Made by a program: the position numbers. DNA of 63,560 nt, counting the filler, from Coriobacteriales bacterium (lineage in GTDB: Bacteria > Actinomycetota > Coriobacteriia > Coriobacteriales > UBA8131): assembly GCA_031263105.1 (NCBI GenBank). It is 8 parts of 8 records of this genome, joined end to end, with 100 filler letters (N's around TTAATTAATTAA, not from the genome) between each part and the next. Parts side by side here need not be neighbours in the genome. Positions count along the whole stretch, not along the records: positions 37,691 to 45,705 come from JAISGJ010000177.1; positions 45,806 to 60,670 come from JAISGJ010000178.1; 6 more parts are not named here. The stretch is one strand, 5' to 3'. Numbering within the stretch: position 1 is the stretch's first letter; each line of letters starts with the position of its first letter. Of this stretch, positions 43,201-55,200 are shown one piece after another.

Positions 43201-46200
43201 CGCCCTGAGGTGGCCGCTGAAGCCCTTGGTCGTGTTGCTGCCGGCCCAGTCGTCGAACAGCCCGAACGCGCACGACCCGGCAAGCAGCGGGAAGAGCGGG
43301 ACGAGGTAGCGCACCCAGGCAGGCTGGTCGATATGCAGGGTCGCGAGGAGGTGTGCCCCCACCCAGAAGGAGATGAGCCAGACGAACCAGACGATGCCGA
43401 GGCCGTTGTACACCAAAACGCCGCGAAAGTTGCCGGCCTTGGGGGCCGTTCGCTCAAGTGAGGGTGCCAACATCGCCATCACGACGAACGGGATGGCCAC
43501 ACAGAATACGATGGCTGCAAGTACGCCGACCACAGATGACTCAACCTTTCGTCCAGCGGAAAACCACTGGGTATCAAGTCTAACAGTTCCACAGCCGCCC
43601 CGCAGGGCACAAATCCGAGCGGCCTTGGCGTCGTGGGGCGGCGGCGTGGGGCGGCGGCGCGGCAGGCGCGCTGCCAGCAGCTTCAACTTTGCCTTCCCTT
43701 CCTCAACCAACGGTTGTAGGCAAAAGCCCCCTGATGCCCCTGCCTGCTTCCTATAATGGCTGGGGCGAACCGACGTGTTCGCAGACAAGGGAAACCACGT
43801 GAACGGAGGTCAGGTATGGGCAGCACGGAACAACATGACGACAAGGGCACGGCTGTTGAGGAGAGGGGGGAGGCGGAAGCGGCAGCGCGGGGGCTGTCCC
43901 GTCGCAGCTTCATCAAGGGCGCGTCCTTTGTCGCGCTGGGAGCCGGAACCGGCTTGGCGCTGGCGGCCTGCTCTCCGGCAGCCTCTGAAGAGCCGGGTGC
44001 CGCATCGGATGCCGGCCCGGCTCCCAATCCCGAGGCATCGATGGCGGCCCCTGCGACCGAACGCAGCAGCATCTGGGACATAGGGGAAATCGGTGAGCCG
44101 ACGCAGAGCATTGAAGCCGAGGTCTGCATCGTCGGCGGCGGGGGCACGGGCATGGCGGCTGCCGTGCAGTGTGTCGAGCTCGGCCTCAAGCCGGTCGTCA
44201 TCGAGGCCTTGGGCGGCTACGGCGGGTCCTTCATCGGAACGGAGTTCATCACCGCCGTAGGAAGCGAGCAGCAGAAAGCGACCGGAGCGTCCGACTCGGT
44301 GAAAGACGCCGTGACCGACCACCTGACGTATCACCACTGGATTCCCAGACGCAAGCTCACCGAGGCGTTCATAGGGCAGATGGCCGATACGGCCGAGTGG
44401 CTTGAGGACCACGGAATCGGGTTCGCTTTCACAGCCGGCTATCGCAACCGCGCCTTGGCCTACGACGACGGCGGAGAGGCGATGCGCGGCCTGAACTTTG
44501 TGAACATACTCGGCGGGGAGGCCGAGCGGCTGGGAGTCGAGGCCCACTTCAACATGCGTGCACGCAGGCTGCTTGTCGAGGACGGGGCCGTCAAGGGCGT
44601 TCTTGCGGAAGATGCGGACGGACGCATCGTCGAGTTCCGCTCCTCCGTGGTCATCCTAGGCACCGGCGGGTATGCCAACAACGAGGAGTTCAGGAAGGAG
44701 GTCGCTGCCTGGGACATAGGGAACGCCCAGGCCCTCGGCATGAACTGCCGAAACGCCGACGGCATCAAAATGGCAGCAGACGCCGGCGCGGCGATGGCCG
44801 AAAGCCTGGGAACCGTCATGTGGTGTGGCCCGGTGATCGTCGGCGCCATCTCGGCCAGCTGGCAGACCGGGGCCTATGTCGCCGGCGTGCAGCCGACGCT
44901 TTGGCTGAACCAGGATGGGGAACGCTACCTGCGTGAGGACCTGTTCCAGGAGAACTTCTCCGGAACAGGGGTGTGCGTGCGCAATCAGAAGCGCACCTTC
45001 GTCCTGTTCACCGAAGAGGACCTTTTGAATTGGGAGACAAGCGGCTCGTATGCGTTCCCCTTCTCGTTCGGCCTTCCCGGCACACCGCTTCCGGACATTC
45101 GCCCGACCCTGGAGCCCCTTGACTCGGTGCACGTGAACGAATCAATAGAGGCCGCAGCGACCGAGGCCGACCTTGACCCGGCAGCCGTGAAGGCCACCTT
45201 GGATCGCTATAACGCCCTCTGCGACGCTGCGGAAGGCCTGGACGGCGAGGACACGTCGGCGGACGAGGACTTCGGAAAGAAGGCACAGTACCTTCGTCCT
45301 ATGAGGGAAGGCCCCTATTGGCTTTGTGAGGTGGCAGACGGCTTCTACACAACAGTCGGCGGCATCAAGATAAACGAGAGGACCGAAGTGACAGGCACGG
45401 ACGACGAGGTCATCCCCGGGCTCTATGCCGGCGGCTGTGACGCAGGCGGCATCCATGGCGACAGCTACGACGTGATGTACCTTGGCGGCTCCGGCGCAAG
45501 CTGGGCGATCAACTCCGGGAGGCTGGCCGCCAAATCGGCAGCAACGTTTCTGGGAAAATAGTCGAGGCATCCTGGCGTTGGGAGCCACCGTCATCCCCAC
45601 CGTCACCCCTCCCGGCCCCCCGCTGCCGCCCCGGCCCCCCCACCGTCACCCCTCCCGGCCCCCCGCTGCCGCCCCGGCCCCCCGCTGCCGCCCCGGCCCC
45701 CCGCTNNNNNNNNNNNNNNNNNNNNNNNNNNNNNNNNNNNNNNNNNNNNTTAATTAATTAANNNNNNNNNNNNNNNNNNNNNNNNNNNNNNNNNNNNNNN
45801 NNNNNCCACCCCCAGCCACCACGCCCCCCCCGAGCCACCCCGGTCATTCCGAGCCGGCCGAGGAATCTTCGACCGCGCCAGCGGTCGACCGCAGGTCGAA
45901 GGACTCCCCGACCTGCCGTTGGTCGCTTCGGGATCAAAGGTTCCTCGGCGGAGTTTATCCTGAGCGCAGAGAAGGACCTTCGCTGCGCTCGGAATGACAG
46001 TGAGAGAGTGTCTTCCAGCCGACGGCTCCCTAACCTTCCAGTGCCTTTCTGAGGACCTTCAGGGGGAGGAGGACGCAGTCTTGGCGCATCCGTCCGATCC
46101 GTTGTTCGCCGTACCAGCCGAGCATCTCCTCGCCCGTCAGCTCCAGGACCTCGGCGACCATGCGGCCTTTGACCTCCTCCATCAAACGGTCGGCGGTGCC

Positions 46201-52200: not shown

Positions 52201-55200
52201 GGCATCGAGCGCGGGACGGCCCGTCATGTTGTAGTAGACCTCTTGGTGGTCGATCGCCGTCGTGCGCGTCCAGCCGATGAGGCTGACGCCGACCTCCTGG
52301 CAGGGCGCCTGGACGACGCCGCCCGTCTCGCTCGTTGCGAGGAAGTGCTGCAGCCAGCGGAAGCCGTTGGTGATGTGCTCGCGCGGCAGCAGGGGGATGT
52401 CGGCGCCGACGCTGAGGACGCTGTCGAATCCCGCGTCGAACACCTGCTGGAACGCGTTGTCGAAGTGGTCGTCGAAGGTGGCGCCCTCGTCGACGATGTA
52501 GGCGAACTCGCGCGGCCACTCCCCTATCTCCTCGAAGGCGGCGCGTATAACCTCGACGTTCTGTGCAGGCGTGGTCGAGATGAAGAGCCGGTACTCGTGC
52601 CCGTCGGCGGCAGGGTCCGCCGCACGCGCAGCCTCGTCCTCCTCCTCGAGCCCGTGCAGGGCGAGGCAGCACAGCTCGGCGACGTCGAACATGCTCCGGC
52701 GGAATATCTCCGCAGCCTCCTCCGCAGAGAAGGGGCCGCCCTTCTCCCGCGTCAGGCGCGTCTTCACGAAGCCCGGGATGGGCGGTTTGGTGAACAGCAG
52801 GAGCGCGTGTCGTTTCATAGCCATGGCAACCCTTCGACCTCCCGTGGGGTTTTGCATACCAAGAAGCGCCGATTCGATGCGTCCCGCCCAGCGCTTCCCT
52901 GAAAGCCGATGGGCGCTCGTCGCCCCCATCGCCTCCCTTGCAGTATAGCGGATTGAGACGGTCGCCGCCTTGGGCGGGGCGGGACAGACGTGGGGCAGGG
53001 AGACGGAATCGTTACTGTACACACCCCACTGTCATCCCGAGCCTGTCACCCACTGTCATCCCGAGCCTGTCACCCACTGTCATCCCGAGCCTGTCACCCA
53101 CTGTCATTCCGAGCCTGTCGAGGAATCCTCGGCCGCGCCAGCGGTCGACCGCAGGTCGAAGGGCCCCCTGGCCTGCCGTTGGACACTGCGTGTTCCGTGG
53201 GCCTGTCGGCCCGTCCTCGCTGAAAACGCGGTGCGTTTTCCGGGCGCTCGGACCCAAAGATTCCTCGGCGGGGCTCGGAATGACAGTGAGGGGTGCAACA
53301 CGGAATCGATACCCCGGTCAGCGAATCCTCAGTGCATAGGAGCTGCCACGGCCGTGGCCGAGCTTCTCCAGCCTCCCCTCTTTGAGCATCTGCGACAGGA
53401 CGACCTCAATAGTCCGCTCGCTGACACGTGGGCAGCGCTCCCTGATGTCCGCCTTCGTGAAAGAGCCGAGGTTCCCCTCGATCGCCTGCCTCGCAAGCTC
53501 CGATTTCGAGGATCCCTTCCCCCCTGACAGAAGCGCCCTTTCCTCGAAGTCCCGATAGGCGGCGAGGAGCACACCGAGGGAGTAGGCAGCAAACTCCTCA
53601 TAGTCGTTGTCTCCCTCGTGCCAGCCGACAGAATCCTCCCGCAAGGCATCGTAGTAGCTCGCCTTGGTACGCTCGATTATCTTTTCGATGCTGATATAGC
53701 GCCCTACCGCATGACCGGCCTGGTAGAACAGAAGCAGAGTGAGAAGGCGGCTCATCCTCCCGTTTCCGTCATTGAACGGATGGATGCAGAGGAAGTCGAG
53801 CACGAACAGGCAGGCAGGCAGCAGCGGATCGACGCGCGAATCCTTCCGGATCTGGCCGAGGGCCTCGCAAATCGCGCCGACCGCGCCGGGCGTGGCGACC
53901 GCGCCCATCGGCTGGAACCGGATGCGCACCTCCCCGTCGGCGGCAAGCTCGGCTATGGCATTGTCACTGTCCTTGAACCGCCCACCGAAGGAGTAGCCTG
54001 TGTAACGATAGAGGTCGCGATGGAGCTGAAGGATGACGCCAGGGTTCACGGGTATGTGCTCACTGCTTTCATGGACGGTCGCCAGCACGTCGCGATAGCC
54101 GGCTATCTCCTCCTCGTCGCGCGAGCGCGGCCTGGTCTTTTGCAGCGCGAGGGCCCGAAGGCGGGCGTCAGAGGTATAGATGCCCTCTATCCTGTTCGAC
54201 GAGTCGATGCTCTGTATCTTGGCAAGCTCCAACAGCCTGTCCAGCTGCTCGATGCCCCCCATCGAGAGAAGCCCCATTCTGGCCTTATGCTCATGCAGCT
54301 CGGTGAGGAGCGAGACGATACGAGGCGTAAGAAGCTTCTCTGCAAGTTTCCCATAGTTGAAATCGCGCATGTCTGCCCTCCCGGTTCAATTGCACAGTCA
54401 TCACTTTAATTGCACATTATAGAACAAACATGTGCAATTCAGGAAGCCGTGCTGACAGGCACAGTGCCGGACACAGTGCCGGACAACCTACTTCCTGGTG
54501 AGGCCGTAGGCCAAGGAAGGCAGGGGCGAGCTGCTTACAGCAGGCCCAGGCCCAGGCTGTGGTTGGCTGCCTTGAACGCCTGGTAGAAGCCCGGCCCGAC
54601 CGTTCCGCCGGGGCCGGGGTAGATCGAACCCACTATCGACGACGTGGAGTTGCCGCAGGCGTAAAGGCCCTCGATGGGCTTGCCAAAGGTGTCCAGCACC
54701 TGGGCGTCGGTGCTGACCTTGAGGCCCCCGTTCGTGCCAAAGGCCCCCGGCCCTATGCGCACAGCGTAGAACGGGGCGGTCGAAATGGCCTCCAGGCAGC
54801 AATTGGCAAGATCCGGACGAGGCTCGAAGCTCTCAGTCTGGATGCTGTCGTGCAGCCATGCGCCCCGCCCGAAGTCCGCATCCACACCGTCGGCGCACAG
54901 GGCGTTGAAGTGGCTTATCTCCTCAAGCAGGCCTTCCGGGTCGATCGAGCAGGCCTGGGCGAGCTCCTCCAAAGACGCGAACTCCGCCACCCATTCCGGC
55001 TTCTCCTCCGCGAACGTGGGCCAGCTGTAGTGCTCCACATGATTGGCGTCAAAGATCATCCACGCGGGAATGTTCTCGAAGGAGTAGGTCTTGGTCGAGT
55101 AGTTGTACATGGGATTGACCACCACGTCATAACCCGCCGCCTCGTTGCAGAAGCGCTTCCCCCTGCTGTTCACATAGACCGCCCCGGGGAGGCCCGCGTA

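Follow-up and report, generated by a model that had tools for sequence, protein, structure and literature searches.

A conserved radical SAM gene module of Coriobacteriales that may serve the maturation of a cytoplasmic molybdoenzyme

A run of four genes in a Coriobacteriales genome (GCA_031263105.1), encoding a DUF2064 protein, a radical SAM enzyme, a ferredoxin-DUF169 fusion and a GNAT acetyltransferase, raises the question of what its products do and whether they are tied to the molybdenum cofactor. The window, the whole 63,560-nt stretch of DNA that was analysed, consists of joined contigs, and the contig with the module (C117) begins at 45806, after an N spacer at 45707-45805. The module genes and family scores of the survey's finding were reproduced at the same coordinates (Table 1). 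The ATG of the DUF169 gene overlaps the radical SAM stop as ATGA, and the same overlap sets the MocA-like ATG on the GNAT stop and the SufS-type ATG on the MocA-like stop; the SufS-type and SufU-like genes overlap by 29 nt. A search for terminator-like sites within the module array found none. The GNAT gene likely starts at GTG 49523, with AGGAGG just before it; a second possible GTG start, at 49538, overlaps the stop codon of the DUF169 gene.

Table 1. Positions of the module genes and adjoining features in the window
Feature	Position	Strand	Family match or context
SufU/NifU_N-like protein	46030-46524	minus	NifU_N 31 bits
SufS-type cysteine desulfurase	46496-48334	minus	Aminotran_5 367 bits, two stretches
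MocA-like NTP_transf_3 nucleotidyltransferase	48331-49068	minus	NTP_transf_3 128.5 bits
GNAT acetyltransferase, 152 aa	49065-49523	minus	Acetyltransf_7 37.9 bits, Acetyltransf_1 32.9 bits
Fer4 x2 (2x[4Fe-4S]) + DUF169 fusion, 331 aa	49535-50530	minus	DUF169 188.5 bits, Fer4 families
Radical SAM enzyme, 473 aa, GTG start	50527-51948	minus	Zn_ribbon_HMPTM, Radical_SAM
DUF2064 protein, 288 aa	51958-52824	minus	PF09837 43.2 bits
Intergenic stretch 5' of DUF2064	52825-53317		Between the DUF2064 operon and an unrelated Fic gene
Fic domain	53318-54370		Unrelated to the module operon

The radical SAM enzyme matched Zn_ribbon_HMPTM with 62.4 bits and Radical_SAM with 77.4 bits. Judged by residue conservation, the GTG start in Table 1 is the correct one, because a 453-aa call (protein-collection entry P0001) loses Cys17 and Cys20, two residues present without exception in the 50 orthologues. 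Its closest solved structure was PDB 7tol, GDGT-MAS (256.6 bits, E 3.7e-75), whose metal ligands are retained (C17, C20, C42 and H45; C84, C88, C91 and H94; C109, C113 and C116; C327, C427 and C442, with M411) and kept in 50/50 orthologues, C442 in at least 90%. MJ0619 had been cited as a pterin methylase; according to Lloyd et al. (2022, PMC9433317), it is the tetraether synthase GDGT-MAS, its methylase activity was not corroborated, and its mechanism runs through a C-S(cluster) intermediate. The same authors describe Tyr459 of Tes as strictly conserved across 1,000 homologues from archaea.

The scores below the TrsS cut-off (366.5 vs 490) and the Tes cut-off (319.9 vs 450) were obtained again unchanged. 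In a FastTree tree the enzyme and its orthologues formed their own clade with 100% local support, inside a group with support 99 that also contains Tes. The counterpart of Tyr459 is Val431, present in at least 90% of the 50 orthologues, the Tes-specific inserts are missing, and residues 338-454 of the 7tol chain have no alignable counterpart. On profile scores and phylogeny, the enzyme is a member of the Tes/TrsS superfamily with a clade of its own, neither Tes nor TrsS, because both cut-offs are missed, the clade is separate and Tyr459 of Tes is absent.

A lipid role, left open in the survey's finding, would have the enzyme connect a pair of acyl or alkyl tails, as Tes and the bacterial Mss do, among neighbours that are unrelated or lipid-modifying. 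The GDGT-MAS match, the four retained metal sites and the group shared with Tes fit this, whereas the Tes score, the 7tol comparison, with the inserts absent, and the lack of Tyr459 now make it unlikely. No conserved lipid-synthesis gene was seen beside the module in related loci, where a molybdoenzyme is conserved instead (75 of 80), and a full-text literature search for tetraether lipid synthase with Coriobacteri returned no paper. We consider membrane-spanning lipid synthesis the least probable reading of all.

Among NCBIfam models the DUF2064 protein scored best against TIGR04282 (52.7, cut-off 134), currently named arsenosugar biosynthesis glycosyltransferase. It was also matched by the CofC model (E 0.0013) and by PDB 3cgx, a putative nucleotide-diphospho-sugar transferase (E 1.8e-7), and by these comparisons it has a nucleotide-diphospho-sugar or MobA/CofC-like transferase fold. 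The Fer4 part of the DUF169 fusion scored highest to HgcB-type ferredoxins, and the invariant residues of the fusion include C138, H157, C159, D161, C261 and C280. Its AF2 model had a pLDDT of 86.8 (91.3 for DUF169 alone), and comparison of the DUF169 model with PDB folds gave no clear match.

The neighbourhood was then compared by tblastn in 80 related loci. The order DUF2064, radical SAM, Fer4-DUF169, GNAT, with gaps of <700 nt, was found in 60 of them, close to the 62 counted before; the other 20 mostly reached a contig edge or had a displaced GNAT gene, and DUF2064 was present in 78. Directly upstream of DUF2064, ending <600 nt from it, a cytoplasmic bis-MGD enzyme of ~750 aa (Mo750), which uses molybdenum or tungsten, was encoded in 75 of the 80 loci. 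The exceptions were L027 and L038, whose contigs start at the radical SAM gene, and L079, L003 and L002, with 834, 1708 and 3930 nt of upstream sequence. Where the upstream sequence reached 3.5 kb or more (63 loci), a CCG/HdrD-like protein lay upstream of Mo750 in 61; where it reached 8 kb or more (54 loci), MoA, of the MoABC operon, was present in 49. The conserved unit, first described as four genes, thus comprises nine in relatives, in the order MoA-MoB-MoC, CCG/HdrD-like, Mo750, DUF2064, radical SAM, Fer4-DUF169, GNAT. A flavin reductase adjoins the module in 21/80 loci. An Anaerolineaceae locus (L080) has the genes for the radical SAM enzyme, Mo750, DUF2064, Fer4-DUF169, a flavin reductase and GNAT in a different order, and its GNAT homologue is fused to MobB (TIGR00176 139.6, cut-off 76). 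In the present genome the cluster is split over three contigs, with Mo750 (C232), MoABC (C102) and the module (C117) unlinked, and genome-wide tblastn found neither the upstream-type CCG orthologue nor a flavin reductase homologue in this assembly, which is 86% complete.

Across a sample of 401 Coriobacteriia genomes, orthologues of the radical SAM enzyme (E <= 1e-109) and of Mo750 (E <= 1e-240) occurred in the identical 16 genomes, from 5 families, and the remaining 385 had neither, including the molybdoenzyme-rich G046 (57 first-look candidates) and G054 (40). The 16 carriers are related among themselves and therefore do not represent 16 independent events.

Such exact pairing of a single enzyme with a single maturase would also be expected if the radical SAM enzyme modified the polypeptide of Mo750 or MoA, for instance by placing a thioether or crosslink close to the active site, in the way that sulfatases are modified by their anaerobic maturing enzymes. 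The enzyme has auxiliary clusters, and the strictly conserved Mo750 motifs CH[FY]CGY[LC]C (69 of 70 orthologues) and GQICWN (67 of 70) could contain the target residue. However, neither the DUF2064 fold nor the GNAT-MobB fusion has an obvious protein-modifying role, and the sole characterised family member works on lipids, not peptides (PMC9433317). Archaeal relatives also speak against polypeptide modification, since no molybdoenzyme was found within 8 kb of the archaeal sister radical SAM genes by tblastn with MoA and Mo750. These sister loci hold DUF169 alongside in 9/80 cases and a CCG protein in 6/80, with UbiE-like methyltransferases and an AMP-ligase; the radical SAM-CCG-DUF169 core is therefore not dependent on an adjacent molybdoenzyme in every case. 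Modification of a polypeptide appears improbable to us.

The TrsS family provides a second comparison. Two TrsS proteins (P0149 and P0155) are fused to a MocA-like DVU_1551 NTP transferase. In Clostridium tyrobutyricum and Sporomusa, TrsS is accompanied by a molybdopterin-dependent aldehyde oxidoreductase of the xanthine-oxidase type, an XdhC-family maturation factor, a DVU_1551 NTP transferase and a CCG-containing oxidoreductase, with a cysteine desulfurase nearby in Sporomusa. In tblastn searches of 80 TrsS loci, a CCG homologue was nearby in 67 and a MocA-like gene in 35.

The main rival to maturation is a shared pathway, in which the module, Mo750 and MoABC act successively on one shared small molecule (for example an aromatic of the catechol-dehydroxylase type, or an organosulfur, organoselenium or organoarsenic compound), and the radical SAM enzyme forms or cleaves a C-S, C-Se or C-C bond of the substrate rather than the cofactor. 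It fits the same linkage and co-occurrence data. Among solved structures, Mo750 is closest to acetylene hydratase (293 bits, E 4.4e-86), to which the catechol dehydroxylases of gut Coriobacteriia are also reported to be closest (PMC7028382); according to the same paper, Gordonibacter has small soluble representatives that lack a TAT signal. The UbiE/ArsM-like methyltransferases, AMP-ligases and CobC-like phosphatase of related clusters resemble small-molecule tailoring, and the arsenosugar name of TIGR04282, the HgcB-type Fer4 part and the flavin reductase point the same way. On the other hand, DUF2064 reaches only 52.7 of the 134 bits, no conserved transporter or substrate-specific regulator was seen in the annotated loci, and the GNAT-MobB and TrsS-MocA-like fusions and XdhC-family factors suggest cofactor assembly over catabolism. 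We regard a shared pathway as possible, though on the doubtful side.

Acetylene hydratase activity requires a strong reductant. The Fer4-DUF169 protein, CCG protein and flavin reductase might accordingly only supply low-potential electrons that keep an acetylene-hydratase-like enzyme reduced and active, with a side role for the radical SAM enzyme. The cluster is indeed rich in electron carriers (2x[4Fe-4S], CCG/Fer4_8, Flavin_Reduct), but this leaves no role for a radical SAM enzyme with four conserved metal sites, DUF2064 or GNAT, and two of the supposed carriers were not found in this genome by tblastn. Reductive activation is therefore quite improbable.

The downstream genes had been placed in the module operon as MocA, NifS and NifU. 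Their overlapping junctions agree with this, but the arrangement is confined to this genome (0/80 related loci have them 3' of the module), and the latter two are of SufS and SufU type. The MocA-like gene scored 137.8 against TIGR03310 (138.9 before, presumably from a different start; both below the cut-off of 186), 118.2 against PucB and 104.6 against the DVU_1551 family (cut-off 315). The SufS-type gene reached 405 of 475 for TIGR01979, and its reading frame is interrupted by an in-frame insert at 47230-47720, which is a copy of a GC-rich repeat dispersed across the genome and leaves the frame open. This 491-nt copy gave 1024 blastn matches on 198/250 contigs, includes 18-nt tandem units, and holds tandem repeats at 47338-47375 and 47459-47541. 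The SufU-like protein has a short N-terminus, matches NifU_N only over profile positions 48-117 and scored 31.5 against TIGR01994 (cut-off 92.5); its gene carries a 75-nt tandem duplication (tandem repeat 46292-46446). The stretch 5' of DUF2064 also carries the dispersed repeat (1108 blastn matches, 206 contigs), with a 24-nt tandem array at 53025-53119. The adjacency of these three genes is by itself weak evidence for molybdenum, because no relative shares it and the MocA-like gene could serve the six xanthine-oxidase-family enzymes of this genome.

The tie to the molybdenum cofactor is nevertheless stronger than when first proposed, since it now includes adjacency to Mo750, complete co-occurrence (16/16), the GNAT-MobB fusion and the TrsS clusters. 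In our best reading, these four genes make up the accessory half of a gene cluster that is conserved around a molybdoenzyme. More specifically, we tentatively favour a system dedicated to Mo750 that matures or tailors its pterin cofactor or active site, a reading that builds on the observed order of the genes, their co-occurrence, the conserved ligands, the fusions and the placement in families. From these we infer each catalytic step and the substrate as follows. The radical SAM enzyme would generate a 5'-deoxyadenosyl radical, and the resulting substrate radical would be caught on the C-terminal [4Fe-4S] cluster, so that a C-S or C-C bond arises in a non-lipid substrate. The DUF169 protein would supply low-potential electrons through its two-cluster ferredoxin domain, and its DUF169 part may hold the substrate or an intermediate. 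DUF2064, as a MobA/CofC-like transferase, could make a nucleotidyl or glycosyl-phosphate link, and GNAT would attach an acyl group. The translationally coupled downstream genes of this genome might provide the nucleotide (MocA-like enzyme) and the sulfur (SufS/SufU). Against Mo750 maturation, strict linkage and co-occurrence equally fit a shared pathway, the archaeal sisters have no molybdoenzyme within 8 kb, the MocA/SufS/SufU genes adjoin the module here only, with a repeat insertion in the sufS frame, and Mo750, MoABC and the module are unlinked in a genome where no upstream-type CCG orthologue turned up.

Compared with known systems, the module radical SAM enzyme has the full four-metal-site machinery likewise present in GDGT-MAS, and differs from Tes in having neither its Tyr459 nor its inserts. 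Its genomic context resembles that of the related TrsS family, which is found in molybdenum cofactor maturation clusters.

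Seven genes are packed on the minus strand at 46030-52824, and their gene calls and profile scores reproduced the numbers of the survey's finding. The stop codon of the radical SAM gene (rSAM) and the start codon of the ferredoxin-DUF169 gene make an ATGA, as do the GNAT stop with the MocA start and the MocA stop with the SufS start, and SufS and SufU overlap by 29 nt. These junctions point to a single operon of seven genes. No terminator-like site was found within the array, and a 493-nt spacer separates DUF2064 from an unrelated upstream Fic gene. The GNAT gene most likely starts at the GTG at 49523, which has AGGAGG ahead of it.

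Features of the window around the operon, with profile scores in bits and model cut-offs in brackets
Feature	Position	Strand	Remarks
Tandem proline-/glycine-rich coding-like repeat copies, end of preceding contig	45500-45706
N spacer with ttaattaattaa linker	45707-45805
Dispersed repeat copy, start of C117	45806-46030
SufU-like	46030-46524	-	TIGR01994 31.5 (92.5)
Tandem duplication of 75 nt in SufU-like gene	46292-46446		2.1 copies, 87% matches
SufS-type cysteine desulfurase	46496-48334	-	TIGR01979 405 (475)
Dispersed repeat copy, sufS frame	47230-47720
MocA-like NTP_transf_3	48331-49068	-	TIGR03310 137.8 (186.45)
GNAT	49065-49523	-	Acetyltransf_7 37.9
2x[4Fe-4S] ferredoxin-DUF169 fusion	49535-50530	-	DUF169 188.5
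rSAM, 473 aa	50527-51948	-	Zn_ribbon_HMPTM + Radical_SAM; TrsS 366.5 (490); Tes 319.9 (450)
DUF2064	51958-52824	-	PF09837 43.2 (Pfam cut-off 25.8); TIGR04282 52.7 (134)
Dispersed repeat copy, spacer upstream of DUF2064	52825-53317
Fic-domain protein	53318-54370	-	HPFxxGNGR motif
FAD_binding_2 flavoprotein, first	54535-56226	-
FAD_binding_2 flavoprotein, second	56375-58069	-	TAT signal model matched
LysR regulator	58202-59074	divergent
Dispersed repeat copy (C117:13500-13700)	about 59300-59500

TIGR03310 was the best family for the MocA-like gene, matched over the full profile although below the cut-off, and was followed by PucB (118.2 bits); the DVU_1551 NTP transferase model NF045665 gave 104.6 bits, below its cut-off of 315. 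Its place here was rejected as proof of a module-specific gene, since the same genome encodes six xanthine-oxidase-family enzymes. The SufU-like gene, which carries a tandem duplication, may be degenerate, since only the middle of the NifU_N profile was matched.

The N spacer with its linker indicates that the window consists of separate contigs joined end to end, with contig C117 beginning at 45806. Directly upstream of the operon, the Fic-domain gene was not conserved at this place in relatives. The two flavoproteins beyond it are tandem paralogues of the KsdD/fumarate-reductase type that are 48% identical, and no TAT signal was scored for the first. Together with the divergent LysR regulator beside them, they resemble the substrate-specific flavin reductases common in Eggerthellaceae.

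With rSAM as the query, 80 related loci were found. One came from Anaerolineaceae (L080), and the other 79 were labelled Coriobacteriia, Coriobacteriales, Eggerthellaceae or more broadly (Actinomycetes, Actinomycetota, "bacterium"), including named Gordonibacter, Raoultibacter, Ellagibacter and Adlercreutzia as well as MAGs labelled Enterorhabdus and Parvibacter. The order DUF2064, rSAM, Fer4-DUF169, GNAT noted in the survey was recovered by tblastn in 60 of the 80 loci with gaps below 700 nt. It had further been proposed that, in this genome, the four-gene module continues into MocA, SufS and SufU. The junctions bear this out; the three genes stood beside the module in none of the 80 related loci, and the extension is private to this genome. 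Annotation of the flanks in relatives revealed the four genes as only the tail of a larger cluster.

The full cluster in relatives reads MoA, MoB, MoC, a CCG/HdrD-like iron-sulfur protein, Mo750, DUF2064, rSAM, Fer4-DUF169 and GNAT, often followed by a Flavin_Reduct protein (21/80 loci) or a second CCG protein. In 75 of the 80 loci, fewer than 600 nt separated the end of Mo750, a cytoplasmic bis-MGD enzyme of about 750 aa, from the DUF2064 gene downstream. Three of the five exceptions (L027, L038, and L079) had less than 900 nt of upstream sequence, and the enzyme was genuinely absent from this place in two termite-gut MAG contigs, L003 (1708 nt upstream) and L002 (3930 nt). The CCG protein was present in 61 of the 63 loci having at least 3.5 kb upstream, and MoA in 49 of the 54 having at least 8 kb. 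MoA (860-1008 aa) has a C-terminal OCRE domain, and its Fe4S4 domain begins at residue 13-21, which leaves no room for a TAT signal; MoB is a Fer4_11 protein and MoC an NrfD protein. In the Anaerolineaceae locus, GNAT is fused to MobB.

Several loci departed from this arrangement. In the Gordonibacter pamelaeae locus L057 (11308-19577), rSAM is parted from Fer4-DUF169 and GNAT by some 8 kb of other genes, one of which encodes a further molybdopterin oxidoreductase; thus, the module tolerates splitting. DUF2064 and rSAM share one 683-aa open frame in a MAG (L035, 9263-11314; greedy ORF call), through either a genuine fusion or the loss of a stop codon. In genome G304 (L251, C2:6000-22000), the cluster looks partly decayed: the Mo750 frame contains a TGA at a position that is not conserved, and neither Fer4-DUF169 nor GNAT was found after rSAM. 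Selenocysteine was considered and rejected for both proteins, since the TGA flagged in the G304 rSAM is merely its stop codon and the internal TGA of Mo750 aligns to a non-conserved His.

In the genome of the window, the cluster is split, with the module on C117, Mo750 on C232, where it stops about 160 nt short of the contig end, and MoABC on C102, all unlinked. MoA and MoB on C102 are 79-82% identical to those of the related locus L007, and MoC 53%. This genome is very rich in copies of a short, GC-rich dispersed repeat whose ends look like inverted repeats: the stretches tested had between 439 and 1108 blastn hits, spread over 189 to 206 of the 250 contigs. Contig ends tend to coincide with its copies, and the repeat probably explains why the assembly is fragmented and why the cluster is broken up; the sufS reading frame stays open despite its copy. 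No CCG orthologue of the upstream type was found in this assembly, which is 86% complete in 250 contigs. The only CCG homologue, on contig C126, is of the downstream type, 34% identical, and has a MoCoBD_1 gene of the xanthine-oxidase family some 5 kb away.

The distribution of rSAM and Mo750 was compared across a sample of 401 Coriobacteriia genomes, including that of the window, using thresholds of E ≤ 1e-109 for rSAM and E ≤ 1e-240 for Mo750. An rSAM orthologue occurred in 16 genomes, and a Mo750 orthologue (51-65% identity) in the identical 16, both being absent from the other 385; the carriers span five families, are mutually related and do not represent 16 independent events. Both genes were missing from genomes rich in other molybdoenzymes, such as G046 and G054 (57 and 40 first-look candidates), which argues that the module does not serve Moco enzymes at large. 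MoA was the second-best Mo750 match in 14 of the 16 carriers. The module thus goes with Mo750 and its paralogue MoA and not with Moco in general, and its coupling to Mo750 is well supported. Among 301 Anaerolineae genomes, the clade occurred only in that of L080 itself. We tentatively read the module as dedicated maturation or tailoring of the Mo750 cofactor or active site, a reading with somewhat under an even chance that is favoured by the connections to MobB, MocA, and XdhC.

The best solved relative of Mo750 is acetylene hydratase (PDB 2e7z), matched over the full length with 293 bits versus 183 for FdhH. Mo750 has no TAT signal and carries an N-terminal CX2CX3C cluster motif, and the Cys of GQICWN is conserved at the metal-ligand position as in acetylene hydratase. 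Where acetylene hydratase has CQSCDINC with Asp13, which we take to be its catalytic residue, Mo750 has CH[FY]CGY[LC]C, and 69 of 70 orthologues carry Gly in place of the Asp. The available text of PMC7028382 places the catechol dehydroxylases of gut Coriobacteriia nearest to acetylene hydratase and reports small members without a TAT signal in Gordonibacter; the term "radical SAM" is absent from that text, and no characterised dehydroxylase is reported there with such a module. The module and Mo750 may alternatively form a shared small-molecule pathway, with Mo750 as one of its enzymes. The genomic coupling fits this proposal as well as it fits cofactor maturation, and we regard it as the main alternative, only somewhat less likely than maturation.

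The remaining proteins of the module were also compared with known structures and families. DUF2064 matched a nucleotide-diphospho-sugar transferase (PDB 3cgx) and, weakly, CofC. The arsenosugar transferases of TIGR04282 are likewise DUF2064 proteins paired with a radical SAM enzyme, presumably ArsS/TIGR04167; however, the present DUF2064 fell below the cut-off of that model and is paired with a radical SAM enzyme of another family. By title or abstract, nothing relevant on DUF2064 or TIGR04282 was found in the part of the literature covered. The invariant residues of DUF169 include C138, H157, C159, D161, C261, and C280. The model of the whole Fer4-DUF169 protein matched only ferredoxins, and a PDB sequence search matched the Fer4 part alone. 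The DUF169-only model (pLDDT 91.3) had no clear solved relative (best Foldseek E 0.09; best VIA-align Z 4.4 to PfaB 9ry8, rmsd 4.2 over 120 aligned residues), a missing match that does not amount to a new fold. In the ESM Atlas it came closest to clusters of the GGGtGRT family, whose score of 0.85 stays under the 0.9 mark and makes them at most a lead, and the available passages mentioning DUF169 state no function. That the module, with its ferredoxin, provides reductive activation only is highly improbable. Scores for the predicted complex of rSAM with Fer4-DUF169 were 0.02 and 0.00, where 0.32 is the mark; run without controls, the prediction is neutral on binding.

GDGT-MAS (PDB 7tol; also 7tom) is the best solved relative of rSAM (phmmer, E 3.7e-75). 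In GDGT-MAS, amphipathic helices at the C-terminus make up the lipid pockets. The methanopterin C-methylase MJ0619 and Tes, which the survey had listed as two enzymes of the family, are the same enzyme according to the available text of Lloyd et al. (2022; PMC9433317), where MJ0619 is a tetraether lipid synthase and the earlier pterin-methylase assignment is not corroborated. The motifs of the four metal sites of GDGT-MAS, taken from the same text, were located in rSAM. The rubredoxin-like CX2C...CX2H site (C17, C20, C42, H45), the N-terminal [4Fe-4S] site of three Cys and a His (C84, C88, C91, H94) and the radical SAM CX3CX2C (C109, C113, C116) were each present in 50 of 50 orthologues. In the C-terminal [4Fe-4S] site, C327 and C427 were found in 50/50 and C442 in at least 90% of the 50, and M411, in the place of the labile Met439 of GDGT-MAS, again in 50/50. 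Thus, rSAM and GDGT-MAS have in common the radical SAM core, all four metal sites and the labile Met.

On these grounds, rSAM could be a Tes-like lipid synthase, but several differences argue against it. The Tes model NF045702 matched rSAM in two stretches, below its cut-off, and the Eggerthellaceae representative P0121 reached 311.8 bits. Tyr459 of Tes (7tol chain residue 479), strictly conserved in 1,000 archaeal homologues in the available text of PMC9433317, aligns with Val431 of rSAM; this Val is kept in at least 90% of the 50 orthologues, and Tyr occupies the column in five of six Tes representatives. The Tes-specific inserts are lacking, and residues 338-454 of the 7tol chain, from the core to the C-terminal cluster motif, have no alignable counterpart. 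The gene context is a molybdoenzyme and not lipid genes as for Tes. A literature search pairing "tetraether lipid synthase" with "Coriobacteri" returned no paper with both terms, and a looser search on membrane-spanning lipids in Coriobacteriia gave nothing relevant among the papers listed. Consequently, we give lipid synthesis only a very slight chance. It is also improbable, though less so, that rSAM is a protein maturase, acting on a polypeptide.

When 1.84 billion cluster representatives were searched, the cluster closest to rSAM was the Eggerthellaceae type at 55% identity, and beyond this type full-length matches had at most 42% identity. Among 80 full-length representatives scanned, most passed the TrsS cut-off and 13 that of Tes, while the window rSAM and P0121 passed neither. 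A midpoint-rooted FastTree of 75 rows was built, which excluded 15 fusion proteins above 560 aa and fragments below 400 aa. The 11 rows of the window clade, among them the Anaerolineaceae copy, were monophyletic with support 100 on a stem of 0.78 and sister to an archaeal group (support 89); the clade grouped with Tes (support 99), and 30 of 32 TrsS rows lay across the midpoint root. Within a known superfamily it stands apart as a clade without a name, and both its set of partners and the class of its partner enzyme are new. At the archaeal sister loci, DUF169 stood beside rSAM in 9 of 80 (Methanomassiliicoccales) and CCG in 6 of 80, and UbiE-like methyltransferases and an AMP-ligase also occurred. 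No molybdoenzyme was found within 8 kb of the archaeal sister rSAMs by tblastn with MoA and Mo750, so that the rSAM-CCG-DUF169 core can exist with no molybdoenzyme next to it. The chief evidence against a role bound strictly to Moco comes from these loci.

The best-scoring NCBIfam model for rSAM was TrsS (NF045646), matched over the full length below its cut-off; TrsS was reportedly named in print by Haft and Tolstoy in 2025. P0121 scored 328.6 bits, and true TrsS representatives 500-700. In Clostridium tyrobutyricum, the genes run in the order molybdopterin-dependent aldehyde oxidoreductase NF045668, CCG oxidoreductase NF045663, DVU_1556 methyltransferase, DVU_1555, TrsS, DVU_1553 ligase, XdhC-family maturation factor, DVU_1551 NTP transferase, and CobC-like phosphatase. 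Sporomusa silvacetica has this gene set reordered, and a cysteine desulfurase immediately precedes TrsS; the annotated stretch of its locus showed no aldehyde oxidoreductase. TrsS is also fused to the MocA-like DVU_1551-family NTP transferase (P0149, P0155), the DVU_1556 methyltransferase (P0138), or the DVU_1553 AMP-ligase (P0192). Near TrsS, in 80 loci, a CCG homologue occurred in 67, a MocA-like protein in 35 and a SufS-like protein in 5, and DUF169, DUF2064, and GNAT in none. The DVU-type cluster was seen in L116 and L144 and not in the window clade. No literature match was found for DVU1551 to DVU1556 by locus name.

A wider reading is conceivable in which the bacterial branches of the Tes/MJ0619 superfamily, the window clade and TrsS, would be non-lipid enzymes that each tailor the Mo/W pterin cofactor of one enzyme class. 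Through its C-terminal [4Fe-4S] cluster, the window clade would introduce a novel covalent change, for instance a sulfur insertion or a new C-S or C-C bond, into the bis-pterin cofactor of an enzyme resembling acetylene hydratase, with DUF2064 as a specialised MobA-like nucleotidyltransferase and DUF169 as a new cofactor-carrier fold. Taken as a whole, including the roles of the window clade, DUF2064 and DUF169, this reading is speculative and rather unlikely.

Much of what is chemically unusual in gut Coriobacteriia is due to molybdenum and tungsten enzymes of the acetylene-hydratase/catechol-dehydroxylase branch, and we know of no dedicated maturation machinery for these enzymes. The strict tie of one such molybdoenzyme to a radical SAM enzyme that has the full metal machinery of the tetraether synthase suggests a new step of cofactor tailoring or activation. 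DUF169 and DUF2064, both widespread and of unknown function, gain a defined genetic context, and the culturable carriers in Gordonibacter, Raoultibacter, Ellagibacter, and Adlercreutzia open the question to bench work. The clade is a concrete candidate for the question of what bacterial GDGT-MAS homologues do, as posed in the available text of Lloyd et al. (PMC9433317), and it counsels caution in taking bacterial Tes homologues as markers of membrane-spanning lipid synthesis.

Among known systems, TrsS offers a close parallel. Both the window clade and the TrsS systems combine a radical SAM enzyme of the superfamily, a CCG iron-sulfur protein, a MobA-superfamily transferase, and a molybdopterin enzyme, and the private MocA-SufS extension of the window has the same arrangement as that around the Sporomusa TrsS. 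However, rSAM lacks the TrsS-specific Cys-Cys insert and the TrsS Cys at the position of T99, and its companions are DUF2064, DUF169, and GNAT instead of XdhC, the DVU_1553 ligase, the DVU_1556 methyltransferase, and the C_GCAxxG_C_C protein. The partner enzyme is a bis-MGD enzyme of the DMSO-reductase family here and an aldehyde oxidoreductase of the xanthine-oxidase family in the TrsS systems. Thus, two branches of the superfamily each join these partner types to a molybdopterin enzyme, of differing class.
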